64,000 nt of DNA from Bacteroidia bacterium (GTDB lineage Bacteria; Bacteroidota; Bacteroidia; UBA8524), in NCBI GenBank assembly GCA_037968475.1, contig JBBKVO010000017.1, forward strand, positions 78,598-142,597, in the 5' to 3' direction. Within the stretch, counting starts at the first letter, position 1. The number at the start of each line of letters is the position of its first letter. Shown piece after piece: positions 1 to 18,506 of the stretch. The translations under genes and the position numbers were made by a program. Under the pieces are notes generated by a model. The model had not been told where the DNA came from. It was given only the letters and a program-made list of their open reading frames with translations, and ran no database searches.

Positions 1-3000
1 GAAGTTGGCTGATAAGTTGAATCTGTTGCAGATTGGATAGTACTCCATGTTATTGAATCACTGGAGCTTTCCCATTGATAATTAAAAGATGAAGTGCCGC
101 CAATAGGAATTGTCCCCGTTAATTTTGAAGGAGTAAAACCCTGACAATTTGCTTGAGGAGCTGTGATTGAATTATTAGTAACCCCTGGTGTAACTACAAC
201 CTTAACGATATTAGACGTATCTGAACAATCTCCTGAAGCAATAATTCTTCTGTACCAAGTCGTAATTGAAAGTGAGGGAGGCAGATAATCCGAAGATGTA
301 GCCCCTGATACATTACTCCATGAGATAGAATCGGTTGAAGATTGCCATTGATAGTTATAAGTGTTATTTCCACCAATAACAGTGCTATCTGATATTAATT
401 TTTGCGGTTGTGCCCCTGCACAAATACTTTGGGGCGTTTTAATTTTATTACCCCCAATATTTGGGTTAACGATGACCTGTTTGGTTAATGAGTCTTTGCA
501 GCCTCGATTTGACGTTGTCATCAACTTTACTTGATATGTATTACCAGCCGAATATTGTTTTGTGGGATTGGCTTGGATTGAAGTATCATTAACAATACTT
601 GAAAACATCCATAAGTAGTTTAAAGTTCCTGATGATATAGAAGAACTGTTTGTGAATACAAATGAGTTACCCCTCAAACATTGGAAAGTATCATTAATAG
701 AAAAAGTAGGTGTGGGTTTAGGAAATACATACACATTTTTAAATGTAGTGTCTTTACAGCCGTTGAATGTGGTTACAATTAACCGCACCAAAAAAGTATC
801 AGTAGTTGTGTAGTTTTTTTGAGGATGTTGATTGGTTGATGTGCTGTTATCCCCGAAATTCCAACTCCACTGATTAATGGAATATCCACTAGGAATAGCA
901 GATGTATCTCTAAATAAAAAGTTGTTACCATTAATACACTGCATAGAATCAGTTATGCCAATGCGAGCAATAGGCTCAGGCCATACATATACATTTTTAT
1001 ATGCCGTATCACGGCAGCCTTTATCAGAAATGGCAATAAGTCTTACGGATCGATTACCGTAGTTTGAATACACTTTTGACGGGGAAATAACATTAGAAGT
1101 ATCAGCAGCGCTAGAAGAAAATAACCACTTATAACTTAATGTTCCCGCTGATATTGAGGAAGAATTTGTGAATTCAAACTTATGACCTCTCTCGCATTGG
1201 CCACTGTCGTTTACTGAAAAAACAGCAACAGGTACAGGAAAAACAACTACTGTTTTACTAATAGAATCTTTACACAAAGAATCAGTAGTAACGATCAATT
1301 TAGTGGTATAGCTGCCCGCAGCAGTGTATGCTTTGTTAATGTTTTTGCCTGTATTGGATGTGTTATCACCAAACGTCCAATTATAAGCGGTTATACTACC
1401 TGATGCCACAGAGGATGAATCAGCAGAAAATGCAATCGGGTTACTTTTACAAGTATCTCTAAAAGAAAACTTGGCAACTGGTTTAGGGAGCACATAAATA
1501 GTTTTAGCTAGCGAATCCTTACACCCATCTGTAGTGGTTACAACCAGTTTGGCTGTAAACTGGCCACTGTATGTGAAACTCTTTGCCAATGAGCTAGCCG
1601 ATGATGTAGTTGTATCAGAAAACGTCCAGCGATATTGAGAAATAGTACTACCCGTAACGGTTGAGGTTGAAGCAAAATTTATAGCAAAACCATAACAAGC
1701 ATTTGGGGCAGTGAACGAAGCAGTTACTTTTGGATAGATACCTATTTTGATGAAATTAGAAATACTTGTGCAAGTGCCTGATGTTACATTTCTACGATAA
1801 TAAATAGTGTTACTAAGAGTTCCGGGTTGGTAGCTGCTATCATTAGCTGAAGTTATTACATTCCATGTAATAGAATCGTTAGAACTTTCCCATTGGTAAG
1901 TAAATGTAGAAATTCCACCCGATGGAGTGGTTCCTGTAAGTTTATTGGGAGTAAAATTAGTACAGCCTGATTGTGCTGAAGAAATAGTATTGTTATTTAT
2001 TCCTGTTGTTACAGTTATCTTAATTTTATTTGAAGTGTCTGCGCAATCTCCGGAAGCTATAATTCTTCTGTACCAAGTTGTAACTGATAATGAATTCGGT
2101 TGATAATCCGTAGAGGTAGCCCCAGACACATTATTCCATGAAATAGAATCTGTCGAAGACTGCCACTGATAGCTATATGTGTTATTTCCACCAATAATAG
2201 TACTATCTGATATTAATTTTTGTGGTTGTGCCCCTGCACAAATACTTTGAGGTGTTTTAATTTTATTACCTGCAATATTTGGGTTAACTATAACCTGTTT
2301 GGTTAAAGAATCTTTACAACCTCTATTTGAAGTTACTATCAACTTTATTTGATACGTGTTACCAGCCGAATATTGTTTTGTTGGGTTGGCTTGGCTCGAA
2401 GTGTCGTTCGCAATACTTGAAAACTTCCATAGGTAATTTAAAGTTCCCGATGTAATAGAAGAGCTATTAGTAAGAGTAAATAAATTCCCTCTTAAACACT
2501 GAAAAGTATCATTAATAGAAAAAACTGGGACAGGTGTTGGAAATACATACACATTTTTAAATGCAGTATCCTTACACCCATTGGCAGTTGTAGCAATTAA
2601 ACGCACCAAAAAAGTATCGACAGTGGTATAGGTTTTTTGAGGATGCTGGTTAGTAGATGTACTATTATCACCAAAACTCCAACTCCACTGGTTAATAGAA
2701 TATCCACTAGGTATAGTTGATGTATCTCTAAACAAGAAATGATTTCCATTGATACATTGCATAGAATCAGTTATGCTAATGCGAGCAATAGGTTCAGGGT
2801 AAACATACATGGTTTTTGCTAAGGTGTCTTTACATCCCTTATCCGTAGTTGTAATGAGCCTTACAACATAATTTCCGTATGTATTATATGTTTTTGATGG
2901 GCTTGTTTGGTTGGATGTATCACCAGTTGATGTTGAAAACAACCATTTATATGTGAGCGAACCCGAGGATACCGTTGATGTATTTGTAAAATCAAATTTA

Positions 3001-5933
3001 TTTCCTTTAAAACATTGGTCGCTATCATTTACTGTAAAGATGGGGTTGCCTTTTGGAAATATGTATACGTTTTTAGTAATAGAATCTTTGCACCCATTGT
3101 TTGATGTTGCTATGAGTTTTACTGCATAAGTACCTGCACTGGCATAGCTTTTAGATGGATTTTGTTGATTTGAAGTATCGCTTGTGGTAGAGCTAAATCG
3201 CCATAAATAATTTAAACTACCTGAGCTTATTGTAGAGCTATTTGTAAATGTAAATAAGTTGCTATTTCCACATTGGTCAGTATCGTTTACAGAAAATAAA
3301 GCTACGGGTTTAGCAAATACTATCACCTGTTTAGTAATAGAATCTTTACACCCTTTATCAGAAATGGCCAATAATTTTACTGAATACGTCCCTACTGATG
3401 TATATGTTTTTGTTGGATTTTTTATTGATGATGTGTCGCTTGCTGTACTTGAGAATTTCCACAGATATGTTAATGTGCCAGTGGAAATACTTGAGTTATT
3501 AGTGAAATTGAATACGTTTCCGTTTACACACTGGTCAGTATCATTTACTGAAAATGAAACGGATGGATTATTGTAAACCGTAACATTTTTTGTAGTAGAG
3601 TCTTTGCATCCTAAATTACTTGTAAGTACTAATTTTACAGTATATGAACCAGCACTTGAGTATGAGATATTGTGACTTACGGTTGAAGCTGTTGTGCTGT
3701 TTCCAAAAGTCCATAGCCTAGTACTTATAGAACCCGATGCTATGCTACTACTATCGATAAAGGTAAAACTATTTGTATTTAGACATTGGCTTGAATCATT
3801 TACAGAAATTTTGGGTATTGGTAAAGGATTAATAAATATAGTTTGTATAGCCGTATCGCTACTACACTCATTACTAAAAATTATTTGAACCTTAAATGAA
3901 CCTGAACTATTAAACTTTACTGTTGTTGAAGATGATATTGAATCACCACCAACAAACGTATAGCTACCTCCTGTTACCTTCCATTTGTAACGTAATGTAT
4001 CGCCATTATTAGTTGTATAAACGGGTTTATGCGCAGTGTCTGATGCTGCGGGATTAAACGTTATTGTTTTAGGCTCACAATAGGTTTTAGGGGCGGGTAA
4101 TGTAACCGATGGTTTACCTTTAATATTAATATTTTTAGAAGCAGTATCACTGCCACAATAATTGCTTACTTTTTGTTGAATAGTGAAGGCTCCACCTCCT
4201 GAAAATAATATAGAAGGATTTGCAGTTGTTGAACTTCCTGATGAATAACTAAAACCTGTGTTGGGGTTTATCGTCCACAAATAACTTCTATGTACCCCTT
4301 TTGAGGTATCTACCATATTTAGTGTAACAGGGGCACATATATTTCCGCCTCCGGGATTATTAAATTTAAAACCTGCAACTGGCTTTTTGTGTATGCGGAT
4401 GGTTCTAATAGCGGTGTCGTTTCCACAAAGCCCTTGTGAAGTGTTATTGGTGGTATTACCCGTTACTAATTTAATAGTAAATAAGCCTGTATCAGTAAAT
4501 TTAATTGACAATGTGTTTGAGCCCCAATTAGATGAACTTCCATAATTGGTTTGTGTCCCAGTGTCGCCGCTACTAATTGTCCAGCCAGTATTTGGACTAA
4601 TACGCCAAATTAGTCGCTTAGTATTATCACAAGTGAAAGTATTTTTAATTGAGTTCCCCGCTGTTGATGTATCAGTAAACTTAACTATATCATTTAAACA
4701 GGCAGAATCTTTATCTTTTGTAAACCCTGCTTTTGGTTTTTCGCTAATGAGAATACGGGGTAAAATAGCAGGATTAGGACCACAACCATTTTCAGCAATT
4801 AATGTGGCCTGAAAAGAATTATTATACGATACTGAATTAGAACCGCAAGATGACTTTGTAAATGTTTTTACATAAGTTGATGGGTACGTGGTTGTGTCGT
4901 ACGATATAGGCGGAGTGCCATCAGTAAATAGTAATGTATATTTAGTGCCTGTCGTATTTTTCCGTAATCCCGTAGCTGACGAAGTATCAATGGTGAAAGT
5001 AATAGTATGAGGGGCGCAACCGTCTGTTGTGCCAAGGTTTCCAAGATTTGAAGCAGGATTGCTGCCATTGTATGGGTTATATACTTTAGTTGATTTACAC
5101 CCTACCGAATCCGTGACTGTAAGTGTAAGAGTATAATAACCAAAACCAATATAATTATGCGTAATGGTATCAAAACCATTATTAAAAGTTGCACTTGAGT
5201 TGTTGCCCCAAGTAATTTCATACAACTTGTCGGTAGTTTTTGATGTACTTATATTTTTTACTAGCAATGCAAAAACAGTATCCCTGCTACATTGGGCAAA
5301 ATTATTAAATCCTTGGTCTTCAAGTGTGGCGTCAGGTCTTGTGCGTACAAGTACAGTTTTGGTAGTAGTGCTTTTACATCCATAAGCATCCGTTACTGTT
5401 AGTGTTGTAGTGTACGATACTTTTTTGCGTGTTCCAACGGTGTCAAACTTATGTGAGGGGTTTGTGAGCAAACTGGTATTGGAGGTGCTACTGCTATTTC
5501 CAAAATTCCATGATGAGCTTAGCCCTGTTCCCGTTGAGGCGTTTGTAAAATTAACTGCGGTGAGTGAGCAAGCACTATCGGGTGAAAATGTAAATGAGGC
5601 TGTTGGAAGTGCGAAAACTGAGTATCTTTTGAAGGAGGAATCTACACAAGAAGGCGAACTAAAATAGCGGTACATCCACACAGTATCGTTCGTTACTGTT
5701 GAAGTATATGTTTTGGTTATAGAACTGGCTTTGGTTCGGGTGTTTTTATACACCCAAACAACAGAATCAGCAGCGGGTGATGGTGTTGTAGTATCAGTAA
5801 AAGTTATAACTTGATTAATACATAAGGGTGATGATGTTGTGAACCCATTAGTACCCCTACATTGTGTAAAAGCTTGATTACTAAAAAGTAAAGCAAGTGC
5901 AGTAAAAGACAGTATTTGTTTAAAACTTGGCAA
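1..5933 (-). CDS. Giant secreted PKD-repeat surface adhesin (SprB-like 'GG..Y.YQW' motifs). The N-terminal part is in the window; the C-terminus runs off the left edge.
   Basis: I translated the minus strand from ~5933 downward. It gives a signal-peptide-like N-terminus (LPSFKQILSFTALALLFSNQAFTQC) followed by >1900 aa with no stop. The body holds many ~80-aa repeats of the PKD pattern (FS.NDT.QC..N.F.FTN.S.I..G.L.YLW.F....DTS...NP.K.Y...G.Y.VKL......GCKDS..K.V.V.P.P). The only in-frame start after the upstream TAA (5937-5939) is TTG at 5931-5933. The ORF track omits this gene because it is edge-truncated. Confidence 0.7.
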   Translation of the reverse strand, partial: MPSFKQILSFTALALLFSNQAFTQCRGTNGFTTSSPLCINQVITFTDTTTPSPAADSVVWVYKNTRTKASSITKTYTSTVTNDTVWMYRYFSSPSCVDSSFKRYSVFALPTASFTFSPDSACSLTAVNFTNASTGTGLSSSWNFGNSSSTSNTSLLTNPSHKFDTVGTRKKVSYTTTLTVTDAYGCKSTTTKTVLVRTRPDATLEDQGFNNFAQCSRDTVFALLVKNISTSKTTDKLYEITWGNNSSATFNNGFDTITHNYIGFGYYTLTLTVTDSVGCKSTKVYNPYNGSNPASNLGNLGTTDGCAPHTITFTIDTSSATGLRKNTTGTKYTLLFTDGTPPISYDTTTYPSTYVKTFTKSSCGSNSVSYNNSFQATLIAENGCGPNPAILPRILISEKPKAGFTKDKDSACLNDIVKFTDTSTAGNSIKNTFTCDNTKRLIWRISPNTGWTISSGDTGTQTNYGSSSNWGSNTLSIKFTDTGLFTIKLVTGNTTNNTSQGLCGNDTAIRTIRIHKKPVAGFKFNNPGGGNICAPVTLNMVDTSKGVHRSYLWTINPNTGFSYSSGSSTTANPSILFSGGGAFTIQQKVSNYCGSDTASKNINIKGKPSVTLPAPKTYCEPKTITFNPAASDTAHKPVYTTNNGDTLRYKWKVTGGSYTFVGGDSISSSTTVKFNSSGSFKVQIIFSNECSSDTAIQTIFINPLPIPKISVNDSSQCLNTNSFTFIDSSSIASGSISTRLWTFGNSTTASTVSHNISYSSAGSYTVKLVLTSNLGCKDSTTKNVTVYNNPSVSFSVNDTDQCVNGNVFNFTNNSSISTGTLTYLWKFSSTASDTSSIKNPTKTYTSVGTYSVKLLAISDKGCKDSITKQVIVFAKPVALFSVNDTDQCGNSNLFTFTNSSTISSGSLNYLWRFSSTTSDTSNQQNPSKSYASAGTYAVKLIATSNNGCKDSITKNVYIFPKGNPIFTVNDSDQCFKGNKFDFTNTSTVSSGSLTYKWLFSTSTGDTSNQTSPSKTYNTYGNYVVRLITTTDKGCKDTLAKTMYVYPEPIARISITDSMQCINGNHFLFRDTSTIPSGYSINQWSWSFGDNSTSTNQHPQKTYTTVDTFLVRLIATTANGCKDTAFKNVYVFPTPVPVFSINDTFQCLRGNLFTLTNSSSITSGTLNYLWKFSSIANDTSSQANPTKQYSAGNTYQIKLIVTSNRGCKDSLTKQVIVNPNIAGNKIKTPQSICAGAQPQKLISDSTIIGGNNTYSYQWQSSTDSISWNNVSGATSTDYQPNSLSVTTWYRRIIASGDCADTSNKIKITVTTGINNNTISSAQSGCTNFTPNKLTGTTPSGGISTFTYQWESSNDSITWNVITSANDSSYQPGTLSNTIYYRRNVTSGTCTSISNFIKIGIYPKVTASFTAPNACYGFAINFASTSTVTGSTISQYRWTFSDTTTSSASSLAKSFTYSGQFTAKLVVTTTDGCKDSLAKTIYVLPKPVAKFSFRDTCKSNPIAFSADSSSVASGSITAYNWTFGDNTSNTGKNINKAYTAAGSYTTKLIVTTDSLCKDSISKTVVVFPVPVAVFSVNDSGQCERGHKFEFTNSSSISAGTLSYKWLFSSSAADTSNVISPSKVYSNYGNRSVRLIAISDKGCRDTAYKNVYVWPEPIARIGITDSMQCINGNNFLFRDTSAIPSGYSINQWSWNFGDNSTSTNQHPQKNYTTTDTFLVRLIVTTFNGCKDTTFKNVYVFPKPTPTFSINDTFQCLRGNSFVFTNSSSISSGTLNYLWMFSSIVNDTSIQANPTKQYSAGNTYQVKLMTTSNRGCKDSLTKQVIVNPNIGGNKIKTPQSICAGAQPQKLISDSTVIGGNNTYNYQWQSSTDSISWSNVSGATSSDYLPPSLSITTWYRRIIASGDCSDTSNIVKVVVTPGVTNNSITAPQANCQGFTPSKLTGTIPIGGTSSFNYQWESSSDSITWSTIQSATDSTYQPT

Positions 5934-6150
5934 GTTTTATAAAATTAATAGAGGCAAATGTATTGCAATAAATTTATCAAATTGTAAAATAGATATTTTT
6001 TTAAAGCTTTTTATTTGTTTTTAGAAAGAAAAAAAATAAATATATAAAAAATATGGATAAATGAGTGGGTGTTTTTAGTTAGTGATGTGTACATAGATAT
6101 AACTACCAAGGTTAATTTAATAAAAACAAAAGATAAATTTTTCAAATTCA

Positions 6151-6188
6151 TAAATCTAAACTATCCTCTAAAGAATAGTTTAGATTTA
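6151..6188 (-). terminator. Hairpin with a 14-bp perfect stem (taaatctaaactat...atagtttagattta), downstream of the minus-strand OMP gene.
   Basis: The inverted repeat was read directly. It sits in the AT-rich spacer between the OMP gene end (6233) and the giant adhesin start. Confidence 0.45.
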
Positions 6189-6232
6189 ACATGTAACCAC
6201 AAAATTGTTTTGGTTTATAAAAAATTTTGAAT

Positions 6233-6940
6233 TTAAAAATTATAGCCAATACCCACTGAAGGAATAATATTTCTAACCTTTATATATCCATCAAGTGAGG
6301 ATCGACTGGTATAATTGCCATTCGTATACTGAGTAAACAAAACATTTTCAAATGTTGGTTTAGCAAACATATAATCCAGCGAAGCTAAAAAGCTAAAGTT
6401 ATTACTAAAATTACTTTTAAGCTGAATACCTAATGTACCTGTTAAAGCACTAATGGCAGATGAAGCGGTAATAAACTTAAATGTATTTCCTCCACCTGAT
6501 AAGGTGGTTTGCAGTTCTCCAATACCATAGCTTAAATAGCCGATTTTTAAATGGCCACCAACCACAGTATTGCCCGACGAGTAAAAATTATATCCCCATG
6601 TTGCTGATATACCCAGCCCTGCATACCCCCCTCCATTTGTTGAAGATAAAAAACTGGCCGATTGCTTTTCTATATTTGCATCATACTCATCAGTATTAAA
6701 GCCATTGGTAAAAAGTGATAACTGGCCACCTATATACAATTTGTTAATTGTATGCAAAAAGTCGGCTTGCAAATAAATACCTGTGGTGGCATAACTTGCA
6801 TTGTTTGAATTGTCGGTTTGTGAGTATTGACCGATTGGTATGGCTGAACCCACCTGAAAATTGATGCTGTTTTTTAGCTCTTGGGCTGAGCTATTTAATG
6901 CGAAAAAAAATGCAAGTAAAATTGTTAATAGTGATTTCAT
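6233..6940 (-). CDS. Outer-membrane beta-barrel (porin-like) protein with a signal peptide.
   Basis: N-terminal MKSLLTILLAFFFALNSSAQ. The body has alternating Gly/aromatic-rich beta-strand character and ends in a C-terminal aromatic (..GIGYNF). An 8-bp gap separates it from the upstream gene. Confidence 0.55.
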   Translation of the reverse strand: MKSLLTILLAFFFALNSSAQELKNSINFQVGSAIPIGQYSQTDNSNNASYATTGIYLQADFLHTINKLYIGGQLSLFTNGFNTDEYDANIEKQSASFLSSTNGGGYAGLGISATWGYNFYSSGNTVVGGHLKIGYLSYGIGELQTTLSGGGNTFKFITASSAISALTGTLGIQLKSNFSNNFSFLASLDYMFAKPTFENVLFTQYTNGNYTSRSSLDGYIKVRNIIPSVGIGYNF

Positions 6941-6947
6941 AGGTTTA

Positions 6948-9608
6948 TTAATTTGTTTGTCTTATTTTATTAATTCTAAATATCCAACGTGCTACTCTAT
7001 TAGTTTTTCCATCATTTCTTCTCAAAAGATTATGACCTAAAATCCCCATTCCTTCAATATCAGCTGTAAAAGGGTGTTGAAGTAGTGTGCGGATGTATTG
7101 TTTTATTAGTACCCTGTTTTCTTGATTTTCAAACAACAGTAAAATAAAAAATAGTATCTTATTGTATAATGATATATAAGGCTCAACAAGATGTGTAGGG
7201 CTACGTTTAAATGTATATTCAGGTGCTTTTTGGCTATAATTTGGTTTTATTGTAGAACTGTTAAAATTTAGTGTCTGGTACAATATTGGTTCTGTTCTTT
7301 TTTCTTTTTTGTCAAAATCAATGGCAAAGTAGGCTAAAGCCAAAACGGCTATATCTTTTATTAATGGTTCGCTTGCATTCATCCACCTATACATGGTTTG
7401 TTCAATGCCTGTGAGTGGTCGGCTTGAATACCAAAACGGATATCTTTCACCATCAATAATGGTATATGCAGGCGCGTTCTCTAGCCCTTGTCTTTGATGC
7501 CTATATATAGGCGTAAAGCATTTTATTATTTGTTGCCTATCATCAACTGCTGAATAACTAAATAAAAATTTTACTAATGGTAATGCCGCTTCAGTATCAA
7601 TAGCTATAAGCTTGCTTATAATTGCATAAAATAATGCTGGGTTCACTCTATCTTTACCCAATACATATAGCTCTTTTATAGTTTCGCACAATTGCAAAAA
7701 ATTTTGCTCGTTATTAATAGGTAGCTTTATGTATACGTTTAATACTGTTTGTAGTAATAACCCCGAGCTATTGTTTTCTTGTAAACAAATATTTGCCCAG
7801 TTGTTAAGCCATTCTTCAACCTCATCAGTATAATTTTCGTATGCCTCTAATAATCCATTAACAATAAATTCGCTTCGCTTTTCATTAGTTATAAATTCTG
7901 GCGTAAATAGGGGACGTATTTGGTAAAAATGATTTAATAATAGTTTTGATACTAAAACTTTATAATGCTCCGCAGTCAAATCAATAGGCTTATCAAGTAT
8001 GTATTCCACAAGCTTTATTACTTCTGCCGACAATTGGTTAGGGGCTTCATCTTCTGTAATATATTGTAGGGCACGTATAACTACATTATACAAATACCGT
8101 TTTGCACGTGGGCTTATAACTCCGCTAGTATTACCCTCATCACCATCGTGCAGTATATCCTCAATTTGTTTTCCCGCCTCATCATTTTCAAGCCATCGCC
8201 ATATCAACTTATACAATTGCTCTTCTTTGCCAAGTGATTTCCAGCGCACAATAGCCTTTGCTACAATGCGTTGCAAGCTGTCGTCGTTTGTTGCTGCCAG
8301 CTTAAGTAACTTGCTCTCAACAGCGGGTAGATACTCTAAACCTATGTCGCTAAAAGTTTCAGCAATGGTTTCTCTTAGTACCTGCCTTTTATGGCGAGTG
8401 CTGTGTAGCTCTTGCTTCATGTAGCTTTTATAGCGTGATTGTTGGGCAGCAGTTTCTAATACTGGTATAGCCGCAGCTATATGCCTACGATGGGTTTGCC
8501 AAGCGCAATGCAAAATTTCTGCCCGTTGAAAGGGGAAGCGGCTTTTGATTAATGTTCCTTTACCCGTTTCTCCGTCAAATTTAAAAAAGCCTAAAAGAAA
8601 ATCTAAATCAACATAATCTAAAGCATATAACGATGAATCACGATAATGCCAAAACTCTTCTGTTATCCGCCTCAACACCTCAAAAAACTGGTCTTCGTAT
8701 ACGCCATCTAATAATGCCGCAGCAATAACCATTAATTTTTCTTTTTCAGTATTAATGTTTTTAAACCAACGTGCAACAAGTGTATCTGTTTTATCTGAAA
8801 AACTATTCAGCAACGTATTAAGTGCATCAGCCAAAATGGGCTGTGGCTCTGCGGATAGCAAATCAATAAAGAACCTTACCTGCTCGGGAGTTTGAAATGA
8901 TGTAGCTATTTGAGCTATTGTTTTATTACCCGATAGTGTGGCATTGGTATCAATTTTTTTAGGCTTATTTTCAAAAGTTAAATGATATTTAGTTACACTA
9001 AGCTCGTATGCAAGCACATTAGCAATAGCTTCTTGGCTATAAAGGTTAGTAGAGGGAATTTGAAACCAATATTTTTTTTCTTGATGTGCCTTAAGTTGCC
9101 ATGTTTTTAATTCCAAATCAGTAATTAAAATAATATAATGCTTTCCTCTTGCTGCTTGGCACAACTCATCAGCATCAAACCCAATATTTTTTGGCGCAAA
9201 TTCATTTAAAATAAAAACTGTTGTGTCTTGTTTTTCTTTGATAAAAGAAAATAGTTCTTTCGGTTTTTTGTCTCCGGCAATTTTCTCTAATGTCGATTTA
9301 GATTCAATATCTTGCTCTAACAAATAAGCCAAATGTCGTGCAAATGCATCTTTATCAAACCCGGTTCCACCTGCTAAAATGATAAGGTTATTTTCTGTTA
9401 ACTGCCCAAGTAATAATAGCGTGAATACGGGGCTAATATAATTTTCAGGCGAGTACGAAGCGGTGTTAACAGTAATCCACTCTGTATCATAATAGTTTTC
9501 ATTAATCTGATCCCCACCAATTGCATTTTGGGCATTAATATTAATATTTCCTTCTGCTACAAACCCCACATTATTTATATTGGTCTCACTTATGTTATCC
9601 ATTATCAA
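6948..9608 (-). CDS. Large (886 aa) hypothetical protein. It has an N-terminal Gly/Asn/Ile hexapeptide-like motif, a degenerate P-loop-like segment (LIILAGGTGFDKD ... VFILNEF) and a long alpha-helical repeat region.
   Basis: Long clean ORF that starts 7 bp after the stop of the TIR gene. The Walker-A-like motif has G-x-x-G-F-D-K-D instead of GxxxxGK[ST]. The remainder is helix-rich and matches no family I recognise. Confidence 0.6.
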   Translation of the reverse strand: MIMDNISETNINNVGFVAEGNININAQNAIGGDQINENYYDTEWITVNTASYSPENYISPVFTLLLLGQLTENNLIILAGGTGFDKDAFARHLAYLLEQDIESKSTLEKIAGDKKPKELFSFIKEKQDTTVFILNEFAPKNIGFDADELCQAARGKHYIILITDLELKTWQLKAHQEKKYWFQIPSTNLYSQEAIANVLAYELSVTKYHLTFENKPKKIDTNATLSGNKTIAQIATSFQTPEQVRFFIDLLSAEPQPILADALNTLLNSFSDKTDTLVARWFKNINTEKEKLMVIAAALLDGVYEDQFFEVLRRITEEFWHYRDSSLYALDYVDLDFLLGFFKFDGETGKGTLIKSRFPFQRAEILHCAWQTHRRHIAAAIPVLETAAQQSRYKSYMKQELHSTRHKRQVLRETIAETFSDIGLEYLPAVESKLLKLAATNDDSLQRIVAKAIVRWKSLGKEEQLYKLIWRWLENDEAGKQIEDILHDGDEGNTSGVISPRAKRYLYNVVIRALQYITEDEAPNQLSAEVIKLVEYILDKPIDLTAEHYKVLVSKLLLNHFYQIRPLFTPEFITNEKRSEFIVNGLLEAYENYTDEVEEWLNNWANICLQENNSSGLLLQTVLNVYIKLPINNEQNFLQLCETIKELYVLGKDRVNPALFYAIISKLIAIDTEAALPLVKFLFSYSAVDDRQQIIKCFTPIYRHQRQGLENAPAYTIIDGERYPFWYSSRPLTGIEQTMYRWMNASEPLIKDIAVLALAYFAIDFDKKEKRTEPILYQTLNFNSSTIKPNYSQKAPEYTFKRSPTHLVEPYISLYNKILFFILLLFENQENRVLIKQYIRTLLQHPFTADIEGMGILGHNLLRRNDGKTNRVARWIFRINKIRQTN

Positions 9609-9614
9609 TATTTT

Positions 9615-10184
9615 TTATTTCTTGTTAGTGATAATATCTCTGCCTGCTACGTTTTTGCCGGTAATATTTATGTCGCCACCTATTGATACTGTGCCTGCAT
9701 CAGTTATATTTACTGCTGGTATTTGAGAAGGTTGTGATGTTTTTTTTGTAGATTTTACTATTTTTGGCTTGCAAGCACTAACTATTTGGCGTACAGCTTT
9801 GTCTGTATCATCACTTAGCTTTATAGCAAAATGGTTTTTTTGTAAAGGGAAATTTATTTCTACATCCTCAAAAGGGATATTGAATAATACCGGAATGATA
9901 ATTTTTTTATGCTTTGTTTCTAGGGCTACAGCTGCATTAAACTCTGTGCGTGTCCAAACACTTTTTATATAATTTTGGCTAATAATGGCAATAAAATATC
10001 TGCTTCGTGGTATAGCTTGCTGCAATATCGCCTCTTCCATATCATCCCCCGCATTTAAGTCTGAGCCAGAATACCAAACAGAAAGACCCGCCTCGCGTAA
10101 CTTGGCATTTAGCTCATTGGCTATAGCTGCCTTATCTTTATATGCGTGCGAAAGAAAAATATCGCATTTTTTGTGTTTAGCCAT
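9615..10184 (-). CDS. TIR-domain protein (189 aa) with a C-terminal extension ending in the motif VSIGGDINITGKNVAGRDII.
   Basis: DIFLSHAYKDK...LREAGLSVWYSGSDLNAGDD...AIPRSRYFIAIISQNYIKSVWTRTEF matches the bacterial/plant TIR consensus (D[IV]F[IL]SH, G..V[FW]..., S.W...E[LF]). The glutamate in the S.W..E motif (candidate NADase catalytic Glu) is retained. Confidence 0.8.
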   Translation of the reverse strand: MAKHKKCDIFLSHAYKDKAAIANELNAKLREAGLSVWYSGSDLNAGDDMEEAILQQAIPRSRYFIAIISQNYIKSVWTRTEFNAAVALETKHKKIIIPVLFNIPFEDVEINFPLQKNHFAIKLSDDTDKAVRQIVSACKPKIVKSTKKTSQPSQIPAVNITDAGTVSIGGDINITGKNVAGRDIITNKK

Positions 10185-10205
10185 TTATTAATTTATTTAA
10201 AAAAA

Positions 10206-10229
10206 CCTTTCGGGAATACACCCGAAAGG
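10206..10229 (-). terminator. Intrinsic-terminator-like hairpin (cctttcggg/cccgaaagg) followed on the minus strand by a U7 run. It sits 5-20 nt upstream of the TIR start codon.
   Basis: Read directly: 9-bp GC-containing stem, 6-nt loop, then A7 on the plus strand (T7/U7 on the minus strand). Confidence 0.45.
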
Positions 10230-10404
10230 CGAGGTTTAGATGTGGCTACTCAGAGCGCGATATAGCCAACACCTAATGTTTTTATAACTTCTTTGCGTCA
10301 AGTTTACCATTGGGTTCTTTGATAGATTAATCTGTTTTCCGAATGGTGGTTTGTTCTTTCCGAATAAATGGAGGGTTGCTATGTTTCCTGTGGGTAGACA
10401 GTTT

Positions 10405-10668
10405 CTACCCTTTAATGATATTTATTGAATATTTGATGTTAGCACTCCCTCCCCCAAGATCAATCACAATATTCCAATTACCTTTATGTGGAACTGATAT
10501 TCTTGCAGGAAGTATTTCATAGAAGCCTCCATAATATTTACAACTTCTACCTGATTTATAATTTGAGTAATTAGTATCATCCATAAGTTTGATATTACAT
10601 TGATGTGTGCATTTAACTTCTACAATATCACCAATGTTTAAATATTCTCGTTTATGTAAGAAATTCAT
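10405..10668 (-). CDS. Small hypothetical protein (87 aa), DUF1883-like.
   Basis: ORF with the pattern IGDIVEVKC.H.CNI.LMDD.NY.NYK.GR...YYGG......ARISVP..G.W..VIDLGGG. This resembles my recollection of the DUF1883 small beta-rich family; the assignment is from memory only. Confidence 0.4.
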   Translation of the reverse strand: MNFLHKREYLNIGDIVEVKCTHQCNIKLMDDTNYSNYKSGRSCKYYGGFYEILPARISVPHKGNWNIVIDLGGGSANIKYSINIIKG

Positions 10669-10685
10669 GATAATTTTTATAGTTT

Positions 10686-11258
10686 CTAAATTTTACCAAG
10701 TTCTTTTAAACGCCAAAAACATTTTGCAGTAATCGCAATATCAATAGATGCATCATGTGCATCTTCAAATTCTTCTCCAAACAACGTATAATGAAGCTCC
10801 TGAAGTTTAGGCCATTTATAGCCTCCAAAACTTCCGGGAATTGCACAAAAACCTGTGGTACTCATCATAGTGCATACTTTGATTTTAGCAGGGATCACGT
10901 TGATCATTCCTTTTCGTATAAATTCAGCACCAACAATTTTTTCATCAAAACTCATATTATGAGCAACTAAGACTTTAGAATTATCAAGTTGATTATTGAA
11001 GTTTTGAAGAACTTCATACAGACTCTTGCCTTCTCTTCGGGCACGTTCAGTTGAAATTCCATGGATGTTAGTTGATTCAGCTGGAATCGAAAAACCTTCT
11101 GGTTTTATAATAAAATTCTCTTCAAGAAGTTTTGTTCCTGCATCATCGTATAAGAGATAGGCTAATTGCACCATACGTGGCCAATTATTAACATCAGTTA
11201 CTGGTGATTTCCAATTATTGGGTAAACCAGTCGTTTCGGTGTCAAAAAATAGATACAT
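10686..11258 (-). CDS. DEDD-family 3'-5' exonuclease (DnaQ/epsilon-like, standalone).
   Basis: Exo I FFDTETTGL, Exo II LVAHNMSFD and Exo III (Y-x3-D) HDASIDIAITAKCF are all present. Confidence 0.8.
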   Translation of the reverse strand: MYLFFDTETTGLPNNWKSPVTDVNNWPRMVQLAYLLYDDAGTKLLEENFIIKPEGFSIPAESTNIHGISTERARREGKSLYEVLQNFNNQLDNSKVLVAHNMSFDEKIVGAEFIRKGMINVIPAKIKVCTMMSTTGFCAIPGSFGGYKWPKLQELHYTLFGEEFEDAHDASIDIAITAKCFWRLKELGKI

Positions 11259-11277
11259 TTTATTTATTTTAATTAAA

Positions 11278-11715
11278 TCAATAACAAATTTTACAAGCCC
11301 TATAGCCTGAGTTTTGCGCTTGGGTTTTGGTTACATTACTGGTGCCAGCCTTGCATCGATTTAGCCCGTGGCAGTAGTGTGAGTGATATGCATAGGCACT
11401 TTTACTATTACAAATAATTACGGTGGTTTCCTTTGGGGGGGCTTGTTTTGCTGCACTTGGTTTTTGTGTGCTTAGATGCTCTTTGGCCACATAGCCCTTT
11501 AGAGTGTCGTAAACCGTAATATTTGCCCAATCACCCGTTTCAAAATTCACAGTAACCCCAGCCCCTTTGTTAAGAGTAGTTTTTATTGTGGCTGTTGTAT
11601 TGGGTTGGCTTCTAACGTTTAGTTTATCAGCAGTTACATAATGGGTTATTACTGCCTTTACTGTAAATGCTAAAAAAAATAATGAGCCAAAAAATATTAT
11701 TAGTTTCGTTTTCAT
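11278..11715 (-). CDS. Secreted SH3b-domain protein with a C-terminal Cys/His motif (YH..YCHGL..C...A...GY..CK.C).
   Basis: Signal peptide MKTKLIIFFGSLFFLAFTVKA. The bacterial SH3-like segment is LNVRSQPNTTATIKTTLNKGAGVTV...WANI. The Cys-rich tail is shared with the next gene. Confidence 0.55.
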   Translation of the reverse strand: MKTKLIIFFGSLFFLAFTVKAVITHYVTADKLNVRSQPNTTATIKTTLNKGAGVTVNFETGDWANITVYDTLKGYVAKEHLSTQKPSAAKQAPPKETTVIICNSKSAYAYHSHYCHGLNRCKAGTSNVTKTQAQNSGYRACKICY

Positions 11716-11722
11716 AGTAAAT

Positions 11723-12004
11723 TTATTTAGTTATGGTTGGTATTGGTGCATTGCAACGCTTGCAGGGCGTAAACCCTTTTTGTTTTGCAAGTGATAAGCT
11801 AAGCGGTGTTTTGCTGGATGCTAAAGCACCGCAGTTTGCTGTATGATATTTTTTACCTGTTTTGGTAATGTATACTTGCTGTTGAGTTTTAACCGAACTA
11901 GCCGTACACGAAGCTATTGATAGGGCAATGCTGCATATAGTAATAAGCCTTGCCACTTGTTTTTGCACTTTTGATGCGCTTGCTATTTGGTTTTGATAAA
12001 ACAT
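11723..12004 (-). CDS. Small secreted/lipoprotein-like protein (93 aa) with the same C-terminal motif (KKYH..NCGAL...A...GF.PCKRC).
   Basis: ORF in a 7-bp-spaced tandem with 11278..11715. Hydrophobic N-terminus. The C-terminal motif can be aligned to its neighbour. Confidence 0.5.
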   Translation of the reverse strand: MFYQNQIASASKVQKQVARLITICSIALSIASCTASSVKTQQQVYITKTGKKYHTANCGALASSKTPLSLSLAKQKGFTPCKRCNAPIPTITK

Positions 12005-12108
12005 TCTATTTTACTGAAATCAATAGCAAGTTCACTTCTTTGTATTTCAGCAGATAGTTTGTTTTCCTAAAGGGTTACTATTTTTTCCTAATAGACTTTT
12101 TTAATTTT

Positions 12109-13242
12109 CTAACGTATTTGCTGCAAAAACCAGTAGCTCCCTTTTTTTTCAAACACCAAGGTTTCTTGAGGTTTAAATCCCAAAAGGGTTACTGTTCGGT
12201 TTTGCCGGTGGTTTGAAGGCGAAAGTTTAAGATTTATTTCAGCGCACCTTAAAAATTGAGTATAAGCAATATCAATCTCACACAGTCCGTTACCTATTCT
12301 TTTACCCACAATTTCATATTGAACAGGCTCAATATTTATAAGGCTATACAAAAGGCTACTATCGTTTTCTTGTTTAAATATATAGGGGCGATATTGTAAT
12401 AAACCAAAAGGTGCTTCGGCTAATGAGGTATTACTAATTATTCCATTGCTTTTTAAACCTGTTAATGATTGTATATGCTCCATACCATTATAAAAATTAT
12501 AATGGTTTCTGTGTGATGTAATCGTGTGTTGGAAATATAGGCCTTGCTGTTTTTGATTTATAGCTTCAAGCGTGCTTAGCTTGCCGTTTTTTAATACTAA
12601 AACTTCTTGAAAATGGTTTTTAACAAGGGCATCCATTTCTCCTTTACGTTTTTCAACAACTTGATTTATTTCAGTTTTTGATGGCTGTAATGATTGCCTA
12701 TGTGATAGAAAAAGTGCTAGTAAATAAAAAAGCCCCAGCACTATAAATAAATTCCGTATAAATATTTTTTTCTTTTTTATAAAATGCAAACCAAATGCAC
12801 AGTTGTAGTAAACTGCTGGTTTTGGTTCAATTTTTTTAACAATTTCGCTAATTATTGTGTCAATATTAGTTTCTACTACTGCCCATCGATGAAGCAAATC
12901 AGGTTTCTCAGCAGTTACTTCCTCAATAGTTATGTTGTATAATATGGGTACAAATTTTTTGTTTTTTCTTTTCAGTTCTTCCAGTTCTACATGCGCCCAA
13001 TAACTATTATAGTTGTGGGTAATAAGTGCTATGCCTAATCTGTTGTTTTTTAGCCCTTCATAAATTCTATCGGCAATATTATCGCCGGGTTCAAATTCTT
13101 TTTTAGCATACCAAACCCTTAGCCCATGCTCGGTTAGCTTGTTGTATATTTCATTAACAAGCTCTCTGTCTTCTATAACATAAGAGATAAAAATATCGTG
13201 GGTTTTGGGTCCTTCAAACAACATATAGTATATATTGTTCAA
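12109..13242 (-). CDS. TIR-domain protein with a central transmembrane helix and a ~200-aa C-terminal domain of unknown function.
   Basis: The N-terminal HDIFISYVIEDRELVNEIYNKLTEHGLRVWYAKKEFEPGDNIADRI...GIALITHNYNSYWAHVELEEL is a TIR domain and retains Glu in the SxW..E motif. A strong hydrophobic segment follows (IFIRNLFIVLGLFYLLALFLS). The true start may be the internal M at MLFEGPK. Confidence 0.75.
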   Translation of the reverse strand: MNNIYYMLFEGPKTHDIFISYVIEDRELVNEIYNKLTEHGLRVWYAKKEFEPGDNIADRIYEGLKNNRLGIALITHNYNSYWAHVELEELKRKNKKFVPILYNITIEEVTAEKPDLLHRWAVVETNIDTIISEIVKKIEPKPAVYYNCAFGLHFIKKKKIFIRNLFIVLGLFYLLALFLSHRQSLQPSKTEINQVVEKRKGEMDALVKNHFQEVLVLKNGKLSTLEAINQKQQGLYFQHTITSHRNHYNFYNGMEHIQSLTGLKSNGIISNTSLAEAPFGLLQYRPYIFKQENDSSLLYSLINIEPVQYEIVGKRIGNGLCEIDIAYTQFLRCAEINLKLSPSNHRQNRTVTLLGFKPQETLVFEKKGSYWFLQQIR

Positions 13243-13314
13243 AAAGAATATTTATAAGAATAATTTAAGCAATATTATTTCCTAGGGGGTGGTTTTTTTT
13301 TCCAAAAAGATATT

Positions 13315-14064
13315 TTATATCAATGGAAGGTGTTTAAAAACATCTTCTTTAAAAGTATCTCCAACGGCAATTTCATAATCGCCCAGCACTAATACATTGC
13401 CTTTAACTGCATCAACATTGTTAATGTTTACCACGTGCGACCTATGGGCTCTTATAAGACTATCGTGATTGATTTTAATGTTTAATGCCCCCATACTAAT
13501 GCTTTGTGTAAGTTTGGTTTTATTTGTAAGGTATATATGGCAATATGCCCTATCGGCTTCAATAAATAGTATATCAGCTATATCATACTTTTTGTAAGTA
13601 TCATTGCTGTCTTTTAAAAATAACTTTCCTTTTCGCACTACGGCATTTGGATGCTCGGGCTCAATATCATCAATAGATATTTTTCTTTTTTCAGCACTAT
13701 TGTTAATGGCTGTGTGTATACTTACATGCAGTTGATTGGCCGAAAATGGTTTTATTAAATATGCCGCAGGGTTTGTTGCCAGTGCTTTTTGCAAGGTTTT
13801 GCTATCACTTAAGTTTGTAAGAAAAATGATAGGAAAATCATCAATAGCCTTTAGCATTATAGCGGTTTCAATGCCATTTTTTTTGCCTGCTATCATAATA
13901 TCTAAAAAAATCAAATCGGGCAGGTTATTTTTAACTGATTGCAAGGCACTATCGCAATTATCAACACAATCTGTAATTTCGTAGCCTAGTTTGATTAGCT
14001 GATTTGCCATGTCATCGGCAATAAGCTCTTCATCCTCAACAATTAATATTTTTATTGATGGCAT
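13315..14064 (-). CDS. Response regulator, LytTR family (CheY-like receiver plus LytTR DNA-binding domain).
   Basis: KILIVEDEELIADDM...DLIFLDIMIAGKKNG carries the receiver acidic pocket and phospho-Asp. C-terminal ADILFIEADRAYCHIYL...LIRAHRSHVVN is the LytTR signature. Confidence 0.85.
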   Translation of the reverse strand: MPSIKILIVEDEELIADDMANQLIKLGYEITDCVDNCDSALQSVKNNLPDLIFLDIMIAGKKNGIETAIMLKAIDDFPIIFLTNLSDSKTLQKALATNPAAYLIKPFSANQLHVSIHTAINNSAEKRKISIDDIEPEHPNAVVRKGKLFLKDSNDTYKKYDIADILFIEADRAYCHIYLTNKTKLTQSISMGALNIKINHDSLIRAHRSHVVNINNVDAVKGNVLVLGDYEIAVGDTFKEDVFKHLPLI

Positions 14065-14117
14065 TATGCTAATGATAATTTTTCTGTAAAATTAGCTTAT
14101 TTTTTTAACTTTATACA

Positions 14118-16425: not shown

Positions 16426-16940
16426 AACATTAAAAATTTAATTGTTTTGATTTCCCGACATGACACGCCTTTCCCAATACCACATGTTGCGGGTTATACA
16501 GTGGTTTAACTAGCTGAAATGTTTACAGCAAAAAGGCATGAAGGAGATAGGAGAATTCCCTGTTTTACTAAGCCTTTTACTACTCTCCCAAATAGTTAGG
16601 CTTAGTTTGCAGGATAGCACTTGCTAATTTTTTAACAACAATTAAATGGGGTTTTGCTAGTGGCTTTCGCCAAGGCCTTCCTGACCTTTGTATGCCATTT
16701 TTTATTGTTAATATTTAGCCGGTGCTGTTGTTTGGTTGCGCTACCAGTTAATTAACAATACAAAGGTGGGGCATATAATTAGGCTGTTTATACACGTTTC
16801 AGGTTAGTTCACACAAGGTTCGGATGGATTTCACGAGTTTTTCACGAGTTTGGGAAAAGCCTTTATCGTATATGGAAAATAGAAATGTCAATTAGGAAAT
16901 ATTTTTAATTAAACAAATACCTAAAGACTTCCTTTGATTT

Positions 16941-17708
16941 ATGGCATCAAATACATTACACGTATTAAAACTAATTGAGCTATTGGCTGAAGACCGTAAT
17001 CAGACTTTAGACTATGCAGGTTTTGGTGCTATGAGTAATGTGCTGGATGAGCCTGTATCTCAACGGTATTTAGATGATTTATACAGAGATACAAAACAAA
17101 AAATCTCAAAAGAGATATTCACTACACGAAAATCAAAATTATTTTTAGACAAAATAGCACAGTATTTAGGCTTCAAAAATTTTGATGAATTCTCTGCTAC
17201 GTGTAATAAGGAGTTTTCTGAAATAATAAAAGCGTGTATCGGGTATTGGTGGAGTTACGTTAGAGCAAACTCTGGCAATTATATCCTGAAAGCACCTGTG
17301 CGGATTTTTTTGGATGACAATAAGCAGAAAATAATGATGGAGTTAAGGGGAGCTGAAAGAACGTTTATAGGTGAGATTGTTGAAAAAGAGGGATGTATGA
17401 CAGGCTTTTTAAACTCTGGCACTGCTAAAAGACTTGGAGTGTGTTTTAAACTGGGTTTAAGCAAGCAAATTCAAGTTACTCAGGGTGTTTTTTGTGGAAT
17501 TTCTTCAACAGGGAACCCTATTGCAGGGAAAGAAATTTTAGTTCGTGAAGAAAGAATACCATTTGAAAATATGAGATGGGAAAAATTTCCCATCACTGAT
17601 GATAGAATTGACGAGAATATTCGCAACTATTTTACAGAATACAATAAAACCTGTATTCAGGTTAAAGATGTAAGCGGTTTTGACTTAGAGAGCCTAAACA
17701 GTATTTAA
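16941..17708 (+). CDS. Hypothetical protein (255 aa).
   Basis: ORF only; no family I recognise. Confidence 0.4.
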   Translation: MASNTLHVLKLIELLAEDRNQTLDYAGFGAMSNVLDEPVSQRYLDDLYRDTKQKISKEIFTTRKSKLFLDKIAQYLGFKNFDEFSATCNKEFSEIIKACIGYWWSYVRANSGNYILKAPVRIFLDDNKQKIMMELRGAERTFIGEIVEKEGCMTGFLNSGTAKRLGVCFKLGLSKQIQVTQGVFCGISSTGNPIAGKEILVREERIPFENMRWEKFPITDDRIDENIRNYFTEYNKTCIQVKDVSGFDLESLNSI

Positions 17709-18059: not shown

Positions 18060-18506
18060 TTGCACTTCATCTTAACTTCGCATAACATGAAAGTTCGCCT
18101 TACCAAAGAACAAAAGATAAAGATTGCCAATAGTGATGATGTATTTAAGGTAATGCAAGCAGTATTGCTTAGGCAAAACAAATTACACCGCAGGAAAGAA
18201 TACTTTTGGTCGATAGGATTGAATACAGCTAATGACATTCTTTATATTGAGTTGGTAACTTTAGGAGTACTTAATAAAGTAAATGTTGACCCTGTTGAAC
18301 TATTTAGCTTTGCTGTACAGAAAAAGTGTAAGAAGATTATATTGGTGCATAACCATCCTTCAGATAATGTAACCCCCAGTGCTGATGATATTGCTTTAAC
18401 CCACCATTTGGTAACGGGAGGTAGTTATCTGAGTATAGAAATATTAGACCACATTATTATTACTGAAGAGAAGTTTTACAGTATGGCTTCAAGTGGGTTG
18501 GTGTAG
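18060..18506 (+). CDS. RadC-like JAB/MPN domain protein (DUF2466); the start is probably at the internal Met, 18087.
   Basis: HNHPSDNVTPSADDIALTHHL...LDHIII matches the RadC JAB metalloprotease signature (HNHPSG..PS..D). This family is frequent on mobile elements. Confidence 0.75.
   Translation: MHFILTSHNMKVRLTKEQKIKIANSDDVFKVMQAVLLRQNKLHRRKEYFWSIGLNTANDILYIELVTLGVLNKVNVDPVELFSFAVQKKCKKIILVHNHPSDNVTPSADDIALTHHLVTGGSYLSIEILDHIIITEEKFYSMASSGLV

Follow-up and report, generated by a model that had tools for sequence, protein, structure and literature searches.

A TIR protein and a candidate NLR-like receptor with a shared terminal motif at a LytTR-associated locus of a Bacteroidia bacterium

We analyzed 64,000 nucleotides from a Bacteroidia bacterium (GenBank assembly GCA_037968475.1, contig JBBKVO010000017.1, positions 78,598 to 142,597; hereafter the window), in which a gene for a TIR-domain protein is followed directly by a gene for a large helical protein, here termed the receptor. 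A preliminary description of this DNA had presented these two genes, together with a third encoding an outer-membrane-protein (OMP)-like product, as a three-gene cassette of undescribed architecture. All three minus-strand open reading frames (ORFs; 9615-10184, 6948-9608 and 6233-6940) were found as earlier described, and the locus contains the following features.

9615-10184, minus strand: TIR effector gene, 189 aa; TIR domain at residues 8-134, Lys/Pro/Ser-rich linker at about residues 137-157, then the C-terminal motif
9624-9713, minus strand: effector-side motif VNITDAGTVSIGGDINITGKNVAGRDIITN, residues 158-187 of the TIR protein, matching the receptor N-terminus
6948-9602, minus strand: receptor gene, 884 aa from an ATG at 9602 (886 aa from a TTG at 9608)
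9495-9584, minus strand: receptor-side motif TNINNVGFVAEGNININAQNAIGGDQINEN, receptor residues 7-36, matching the TIR tail
8988-9479, minus strand: AAA+/STAND-like alpha/beta domain with beta-loop-alpha topology, receptor residues ~42-205
9351-9371, minus strand: degenerate Walker A motif G78-G-T-G-F-D-K84-D within that domain
7293-8405, minus strand: HEAT/ARM-type helical solenoid, receptor residues ~400-770, the presumed ligand-sensing part
6233-6940, minus strand: OMP-like secreted orphan gene, 235 aa

The gene pair and its shared terminal motif

The spacers between these genes, previously given as 7 and 8 bp, recount to 6 nt between the TIR and receptor genes and 7 nt between the receptor and OMP-like genes; with the receptor start at the ATG at 9602, which gives the 884-aa product P0001 of the public protein collection, the first spacer is 12 nt. 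Besides the window we read 16 loci, of which 13 are from Bacteroidota, one is of cyanobacterial type (L017) and two are metagenomic (L019 and L020). In every TIR locus the effector and receptor genes overlap or lie 0-12 nt apart, and the proposed coupling of the TIR gene to the large gene holds as a conserved, tightly coupled pair. The OMP-like gene is kept only in L001 and L014, the closest relatives, and is missing from the 11 other Bacteroidota loci, and the core is a two-gene effector/receptor module rather than a three-gene system.

The 30-residue tail of the TIR protein, rich in Asn, Gly, Ile and Val, mirrors the disordered N-terminus of the 884-aa receptor. Local alignment of VNITDAGTVSIGGDINITGKNVAGRDIITN with TNINNVGFVAEGNININAQNAIGGDQINEN gives a score of 47, against 23 ± 4.3 for composition-preserving shuffles, none of which reached 47 in 2000 trials. 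This sharing of a motif was seen again in all 16 other loci, including L001, L004-L014 and the more distant L017, L019 and L020, with sequence variants such as VSGKQIAGKNINN versus VSGEQIAGNDINN in L004. Between the window and L014, the TIR tail and the receptor N-terminus show no more than one changed residue in their motif segments.

Pair specificity was evaluated with 12 Bacteroidota pairs (the window, L001 and L004-L013). Cognate motifs align with a mean score of 52 versus 32 for non-cognate combinations (permutation p = 5e-5), and in the score matrix the true partner comes out on top for 7 of 12 rows and for 7 of 12 columns. Distinct motif types, for example NFHQGD in L010, are common to their own locus only. 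The motifs are enriched in Asn (3.7-fold), Gly (2.9-fold), Ile (1.8-fold) and Val (1.4-fold) and depleted in Pro (0.08-fold), Leu (0.24-fold) and Lys (0.73-fold), while Gln is not enriched (0.71-fold). Gln excepted, this is the composition of bacterial amyloid signaling sequences (BASS), in which N, Q, G, V and I are raised and P, L and K lowered over about 25 residues. Two further BASS hallmarks are present: adjacent genes bear the same terminal motif, and likeness is greater within a pair than between pairs. The motifs also carry an A-G-[RG]-D core as in BASS1, and a BASS1 profile reaches at least 8 bits in 5 of 164 family termini versus 0 of 3643 control sequences. Overall, the motif is akin in style to BASS1 but outside that class. 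The shared terminal motif had been overlooked in the preliminary description. By this motif the pair belongs to an already described class, that of effector/NLR pairs coupled by amyloid signaling motifs, and the claim of an undescribed architecture was too strong.

The effector itself is a clear TIR domain, as first described (Pfam TIR_2, 1.8e-24), with PDC-S66 as its best PADLOC model (5e-29). Of the S.W..E motif previously assigned to it, the Glu is retained but the spacing differs, the actual arrangement being S75-x-W77-x3-E81. W77 and E81 are unchanged in 7 of 7 TIR orthologues and align with the WxxxE of AbTIR, which, with PdTIR and TcpB, is among the nearest solved structures. AbTIR and PdTIR are described as bacterial NADases, and the Glu of WxxxE is the catalytic residue in AbTIR. 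By sequence, the protein appears to combine the two marks of an NADase-type TIR, namely the TIR fold and a conserved Glu in WxxxE, and NADase output is the activity we would infer for it. Assignment to Thoeris was rejected: ThsB models match the TIR protein at 2e-12, more weakly than PDC-S66, and the cluster has no ThsA-like (SIR2/Macro-SLOG) gene. A word-based homologue search with the TIR protein returned only itself and one relative at 88% identity.

The receptor fold and its family

An AlphaFold2 model of the receptor, computed with 80 family members in the alignment, has a pLDDT of 89.1 and a pTM of 0.84; it replaced a run with a three-sequence alignment (pLDDT 53), in which the N-terminal half was unusable. 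Confidence falls below a pLDDT of 50 in residues 1-38, which hold the motif, and in a loop at residues 790-801. The best fold matches are to Avs5 SIR2-STAND, with others to SAMD9, Apaf-1/DARK/NRC2, AAA+ and HEAT proteins, and the solenoid matches PP2A-A/B56, beta-catenin and CAND1. As modeled, the protein would have the layout of a STAND protein: an AAA+/STAND alpha/beta core, then helical domains, then repeats that form a superstructure.

The GGTGFDKD and hhhhNE-type motifs previously noted in the large protein are both there, the latter as V-F-I-L-N133-E. Neither conforms to the canonical Walker A (GxxxxGK[ST]) or Walker B (hhhhD[DE]) pattern. G78, F82, D83 and K84 are unchanged among the 14 closest relatives, and G78, D83 and K84 occur in 64-70 of 80 members across the family. 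The degeneracy is family-wide in these 80 members: an Asp precedes the Walker A Lys, no Ser or Thr follows it, and the Walker B position is Pro, Asn or Asp. Together with the predicted fold, these motifs uphold the view of the large protein as a decayed P-loop NTPase with helical repeats.

No PADLOC, Pfam or NCBIfam model covers the receptor. No match exceeds the cutoff in these three collections, and Pfam at E ≤ 10 yields a marginal nSTAND3 match alone (E 0.077, below cutoff); nSTAND3 is found in 2 of 51 relatives, down to 4.1e-5. HEAT_2 is matched in 20 of 51 relatives (best 3.7e-9), and the family profile weakly matches McrB over the P-loop region (E 0.03). The NACHT or NB-ARC domain of BASS-associated NLRs has no match in the receptor at E ≤ 10, nor in the 51 relatives.

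A word-based search with the receptor returned three proteins only. The two relatives among them (51% and 30% identical) are both encoded directly after a TIR gene, overlapping it or 0-1 nt apart, and bear their own motif variants. Exhaustive HMMER searching of 1.84 billion cluster representatives revealed a family of 425 relatives (238 at E ≤ 1e-30), mostly of 870-950 aa. Most members start with a variable segment of 20-45 residues rich in Gly, Asn, Gln, Asp, Val and Ile, which precedes the conserved core. A profile scan of genome contigs with the three-sequence alignment gave no loci; with a 14-sequence alignment it gave nine further loci, all in Bacteroidota metagenome-assembled genomes (MAGs) from Cytophagales, Saprospiraceae, Lewinellaceae, Phaeodactylibacter and Bacteroidia, and a scan of metagenome contigs added two, one of them a duplicate. 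In all nine, a neighboring gene has a terminal or near-terminal segment that mirrors the receptor N-terminus. The partners of these loci are given below.

L005, L006, L007: TIR (Pfam), directly upstream of the receptor
L009, L010: PNP_UDP_1 (Pfam), directly upstream of the receptor
L013: PNP_UDP_1 (Pfam), two genes upstream of the receptor
L012: PNP_UDP_1 with EAD11 (Pfam), downstream of the receptor
L008, L011: domain of 275-296 aa with no Pfam match, upstream of the receptor

Similarly, the partner in L017 is a small helical protein linked through a BASS4-like motif, and those in L019 and L020 are small proteins. Effector domains are thus exchanged while the motif link is kept, across TIR, PNP_UDP_1, PNP_UDP_1 with EAD11, the unannotated domain and small helical proteins.

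The L010 locus (4731-14437) sets the family beside canonical receptors. One PNP_UDP_1 effector is followed there by a family member, an NB-ARC-TPR protein and a CHAT-STAND-TPR protein, and all three start with a motif borne by the effector. The two canonical STAND proteins have near-identical motifs, SKNI[IL]Y...GN[IV]HIGD, and the family member has the NFHQGD variant; the effector carries two different C-terminal motifs, as does, in similar fashion, the effector of L009. Since three receptors share the motif of one effector, the receptor family fills the slot of canonical NLRs.

Some members differ in length and ending. Longer ones of 1000-1500 aa (P0041, P0054, P0058, P0083, P0134, P0158, P0037, P0042, P0046 and P0124) have a transmembrane (TM) helix after the core and, beyond it, extracytoplasmic modules such as IMS domains resembling that of ARC6, SH3-like domains and cadherin-like repeats, and some members of ~900 aa (P0021, P0023, P0026, P0028 and P0029) end in a TM helix. 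These helices suggest that a subset of the family is membrane-anchored. The genes flanking the L013 receptor gene (126-8608) encode Hsp70 and an Hsp70-vWA fusion, an arrangement that recalls chaperone/vWA-coupled conflict systems.

Regulatory sites and gene neighborhood

Direct repeats resembling LytTR-binding sites precede several transcription units of the window, and genes for a LytTR response regulator and a histidine kinase lie close by.

10336-10364, minus strand: LytTR-box-like direct repeat ATTCGGAAA-N12-ATTCGGAAA, an exact pair 152 nt upstream of the TIR ATG
12063-12112, minus strand: LytTR-box-like repeat in three copies, upstream of the operon for small secreted proteins
13278-13306: weaker LytTR-like box upstream of the TIR-TM gene at 12109-13242
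16871-16899, plus strand: weaker LytTR-box-like repeat with 2 mismatches, 42 nt upstream of the 255-aa gene at 16941-17708
13315-14064, minus strand: LytTR response regulator (Pfam Response_reg 5e-19, LytTR 3e-12), the presumed cluster regulator
14118-15974, plus strand: TPR-HisKA_2 histidine kinase (Pfam TPR_12 1e-34, HisKA_2 8e-23) with one TM helix at residues 392-410
10205-10230, minus strand: terminator-like hairpin and T-run between the box and the TIR start, ~20 nt before the start

Direct repeats of 9 bp with a 12-bp spacer are the documented layout of LytTR sites (PMC6193735, Tables 2-3), to which ATTCGGAAA-N12-ATTCGGAAA conforms. Across the window and all loci (288 kb), we searched for pairs of TT[CA][AG]GAAA 21 bp apart with at most one mismatch. 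The scan gave 16 matches versus 0.36 ± 0.61 in 300 shuffles (maximum 4), all of them intergenic, co-oriented with the downstream gene and confined to loci with the kinase/regulator pair. The genes behind them are the motif-bearing effector, the small secreted-protein operon, the TIR-TM gene (in L001) and the conserved 255-aa gene. The position of the box at 12063-12112 is also occupied in L014, L004 and L007, and stronger boxes precede homologues of the 255-aa gene in L001, L005 and L007. The kinase gene is divergent from the regulator gene, and the two lie beside the module in the window, L001, L004, L005, L007, L008, L011 and L014, despite differing effector types. The boxes are thus candidate binding sites of the adjacent LytTR regulator, and the direct repeat in the promoter region suggests that the effector/receptor pair belongs to the regulon of the adjacent kinase and regulator.

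The hairpin between box and TIR start is kept in L001 (8748-8800) with compensatory changes, and an identical 13-mer, GCGCTCTGAGTAG, precedes it (window 10205-10258). It may be the terminator of the upstream operon or a leader/attenuator. Rfam gave no family anywhere in the window, hairpin included, and a scan for sigma-70 promoters gave no more than chance and is uninformative for Bacteroidota.

The genes around the module include the following.

11723-12004, 11278-11715, 10686-11258 and 10405-10668, minus strand: small secreted protein operon
12109-13242, minus strand: second TIR protein (TIR_2 1.7e-19) with one TM helix at residues 159-177 and a ~200-aa C-terminal domain
1-5936, minus strand: internally repetitive secreted protein, encoded in a single unbroken ORF (at least 1978 codons) that extends beyond the window start

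An accessory or defense-island setting had been suggested from a second TIR gene, a standalone exonuclease, a RadC gene and AT-rich non-coding remnants. The second TIR gene (12109-13242), the RadC gene (18060-18506) and the exonuclease, which is of DEDDh type (10686-11258; PADLOC DEDDh 1e-25), were all borne out. The remnants were not: that region is the giant ORF listed above, which over 1203 aa shows 95% identity to a partial gene in L014, and only ~300 bp between it and the OMP-like gene (5937-6232) is intergenic. Flanking genes are ordinary chromosomal ones (MurB, a YegS-type kinase, a glycosyltransferase and BatA), and the window contains no tRNA genes.

The second TIR protein has a Toll-like-receptor-style topology and keeps the Trp/Glu pair (WAHVE). 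Its gene adjoins the regulator in the window, L001 and L014, whereas in L005 (8692-9840), L006 (3713-4816) and L007 (8611-9753) a homologue comes straight after the receptor gene. The small secreted or lipoprotein-like proteins (11723-12004 and 11278-11715) end in KKYH..C...PC..C, with a weak Ada Zn-binding match (E 0.028), and one small secreted protein carries an SH3_3 domain. KKYH..C...PC..C proteins recur beside the module behind LytTR-type boxes in L004 (11576-11827), L005 (~9950-10153) and L007 (~10096-10332). The 255-aa protein (16941-17708, plus strand) has no Pfam match and is syntenic in L001, L004, L005 and L007; its residues 39-84 resemble the N-terminal part of the L011 effector (5086-5976; pairwise BLASTP E 8e-5).

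In the window, the place just upstream of the TIR operon is taken by genes for the DEDDh exonuclease and a DUF1883 protein (10405-11258); L001 has the exonuclease too. In L014 one 96-aa gene (9515-9805) replaces both, which makes this a variable slot. Most cluster proteins are 94-98% identical between the window and L014, whereas the two TIR proteins are 88.4% and 89.4% identical; a CarboxypepD_reg protein is 80% identical.

Proposed mechanism, alternatives and significance

Fungal HET-S/NWD2 and related pairs work by templating, from the N-terminal motif of a receptor to the C-terminal motif of an executioner that has its own gene. PNP_UDP effectors are common to the fungal pairs and to the present family (L009, L010, L012 and L013). 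The fungal systems differ in being eukaryotic, with active NACHT receptors and a pore former, rather than a TIR protein, as the classic effector.

In bacteria, BASS1-10 were defined from Bell-domain/NLR pairs in a study that reported a compositional bias like the one seen here and already noted effectors of the TIR_2, CHAT, alpha/beta-hydrolase and cyclase kinds (Dyrka et al. 2020, bioRxiv 10.1101/2020.01.06.895854). The window shares with BASS pairs the adjacent genes, a motif of ~25-30 aa at the effector C-terminus and receptor N-terminus that is rich in N, G, V and I and poor in P and L, within-pair identity above between-pair identity, and a core resembling that of BASS1. It differs in a receptor that has degenerate Walker motifs and lacks a NACHT/NB-ARC match, in its occurrence in Bacteroidota under LytTR-type boxes, and in the low score of its motif by the BASS1 profile. 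The tables of that study list no classified BASS pair in 2858 Bacteroidota genomes and one unclassified pair, from Flectobacillus; its search required NACHT or NB-ARC, which the present receptor family lacks.

Bab/Agp of E. coli is an experimentally demonstrated abortive-infection system that acts through the BASS11 motif, which is stated to occur also with TIR (Ibarlosa et al. 2024, bioRxiv 10.1101/2024.11.07.622273). Like the window, it consists of two adjacent genes with a common terminal motif and a receptor that is not a canonical NLR. The Bab/Agp effector is a small pore-forming Bell-like domain and its receptor a TPR-GreA/B-C-PIN polypeptide, in contrast to the TIR enzyme and pseudo-STAND/HEAT protein of the window. 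The Avs/AVAST STAND proteins, such as Avs5 SIR2-STAND, share the order of effector, NTPase-like domain and helical-repeat sensor, and some homologues have degenerate Walker motifs, as in KpAvs8 (PMC13581612). In the window, however, effector and receptor are distinct polypeptides joined through a peptide motif, the whole family has degenerate Walker A and B motifs, and the receptor matches no PADLOC, Pfam or NCBIfam model but the marginal nSTAND3. The iSTAND ternary systems of cyanobacteria, proteobacteria and bacteroidetes likewise combine an inactive STAND-type core with TIR and other conflict effectors (Kaur, Burroughs, Iyer and Aravind 2020, PMC7159879), but their effectors and effector-associated domains (EADs) are fused to it instead of being joined through a shared terminal motif. 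An iSTAND ternary system was rejected for the window, as the cluster lacks the MoxR AAA+ and vWA genes by which such systems are defined, and only L013 has an Hsp70-vWA neighbor. What is new against this literature is the family of the receptor, its phylum, the class of the motif and the wiring to a two-component system.

We therefore consider it probable, with moderate confidence, that the locus encodes a two-gene module in which an NLR-like receptor signals to a TIR protein via a shared amyloid-type motif, within a LytTR two-component regulon. Amyloid templating, NADase output and an immune role are suggested by architecture and precedent, and together would give the following course. The receptor would be the sensor, and a cue bound by its HEAT-type solenoid would cause receptors to oligomerize. 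Their N-terminal motifs would adopt a beta-rich, amyloid-like fold and template the matching motif on the TIR C-terminus, which is carried on a flexible Lys-rich linker. The templated TIR domains would then line up so that composite NADase sites form, and consumption of NAD+ or production of a signaling nucleotide would stop growth of the affected cell, following an abortive-infection logic. Through the promoter region with its LytTR-type repeat, the pair would stand in the regulon of the adjacent TPR-histidine kinase and LytTR regulator, which would also include the TIR-TM protein and the small secreted proteins.

Several observations weigh against this account. The BASS1 profile, built from the published Table S2, gives the receptor N-terminus of the window 0.6 bits and does not detect the TIR tail, a score that rules out BASS1 membership of the pair; BASS1 being the class tested, the motif is assigned to no tested class. 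Its amyloid state and the contact between its two copies we infer. Family-wide degeneracy of the NTPase motifs means that a nucleotide-driven STAND switch cannot be assumed. PADLOC returned no system match for the receptor, the neighborhood is only loosely defense-like, and phage and plasmid collections gave no homologue, a result by which a mobile-element origin was also rejected. On the regulatory side, the conserved synteny of kinase and regulator may partly reflect shared ancestry of related genomes, and the position of the hairpin between LytTR box and TIR start complicates the promoter model.

Among alternatives, the one that survives best, although we think it unlikely, is that the motif serves as a homotypic adaptor without forming amyloid: a stable beta-structure of fixed stoichiometry would tether the TIR protein permanently to the receptor, much as effector-associated domains do in STAND systems, and activation would come from a conformational change of the ready-made complex instead of prion-like templating. 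The tight translational coupling points to 1:1 co-expression, pair-specific covariation fits any direct contact, and EAD-type adaptors occur in the same neighborhoods, including the EAD11 on the L012 effector. Yet the length and composition of the motif, its glycine-punctuated short strands, terminal position and disordered monomer are BASS/HRAM-like and unlike folded EADs, and the two motifs that the L009 and L010 effectors carry match different receptors, which fits modular templating tags.

Somewhat less likely still is a role other than anti-phage defense, in which the locus would belong to a two-component-controlled envelope-stress, developmental or kin-conflict regulon of gliding or filamentous Bacteroidota, its TIR proteins making nucleotide signals or executing cell death. 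LytTR boxes stand before five transcription units, including those for secreted SH3 and Zn-ribbon-like proteins, the TIR-TM protein and the 255-aa protein, and the block is syntenic in several MAGs, with no mobile-element or defense-island hallmarks detected and MurB, the YegS-type kinase and the glycosyltransferase at its flanks. Several traits are, in contrast, typical of conflict systems: effectors are swapped, the family is rare, both TIR genes diverge faster than their neighbors (88-89% versus 94-98%), and a variable slot lies beside the TIR gene. The Bab/Agp precedent with the same architecture is antiphage.

We regard as improbable the original proposal of a three-gene TIR conflict system in which the OMP-like protein is functional, for example as an envelope sensor or executioner pore. 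Its gene lies 7 nt after the receptor gene on the same strand, a position kept in L001 (59% identity) and L014 (98%), and secreted and envelope proteins are plentiful in the regulon around it. But the gene is absent from L004-L013 and none was called beside the receptor in L017, L019 and L020, though all of these keep the pair; in L005, L006 and L007 the third position is held by the TIR-TM gene, homologous to the second TIR gene of the window. Among 5.8 billion proteins searched, this orphan matched itself alone, which together with its retention in L001 and L014 only leaves it no place as a defining third component. Of its description as a signal-peptide beta-barrel OMP, the signal-peptide-like N-terminus and a C-terminal ...GIGYNF with terminal Phe are found, but no match to an OMP family or to any entry of Pfam, NCBIfam, PADLOC or the sequences of the PDB. 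The gene also lies directly upstream of the secreted repeat-protein gene of more than 1978 codons, and an association with that gene is equally possible. The OMP-like gene is probably co-transcribed with the receptor gene, given the 7-nt spacer, but is not a conserved component; we conclude that it is a lineage-specific operon passenger or belongs with the giant gene downstream.

Chance likeness of low-complexity N/G/I-rich termini is barely credible and was rejected on the shuffle and permutation tests: the sequences are short and compositionally biased, and the score of the window's pair is equaled by some non-cognate combinations, but no shuffle reached the observed score, the arrangement recurs in every locus examined, cognate pairs score above non-cognate ones, and motif types such as NFHQGD are locus-specific.

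In fungi, signaling through an amyloid motif from an NLR to a separate executioner is established. Bacteria have so far provided one experimental example, Bab/Agp, and bioinformatic catalogues limited to NACHT/NB-ARC receptors of Actinobacteria and Cyanobacteria. A two-gene module of the kind favored here would add to the same signaling logic a large receptor family that current domain and defense databases miss. On a wider reading, which we put forward tentatively and with less than even confidence, the 884-aa protein founds an unrecognized, fairly large family (at least 425 clusters at 50% identity, with Bacteroidota and cyanobacterial-type members) of NTPase-dead NLR-like receptors that pass their signal by prion-like templating, via a variety of terminal motifs, to TIR, nucleoside-phosphorylase, Bell-like and other effectors encoded by genes of their own; in one Bacteroidota lineage, the entire module would be an inducible regulon of a periplasm-sensing TPR-kinase/LytTR pair. 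If true, this would be an immune or cell-death pathway that depends neither on nucleotide switching by its receptor nor on being expressed constitutively. The family-wide degenerate motifs bear on how STAND-like sensors switch, in that the NTPase cycle would be dispensable. TIR and PNP enzymes, beyond pore formers, could be templated effectors, and forced polymerization would offer a simple route to TIR activation. Such modules could also come under two-component transcriptional control, and the locus yields short peptides and a defined 30-bp candidate operator with which these ideas can be tested directly.

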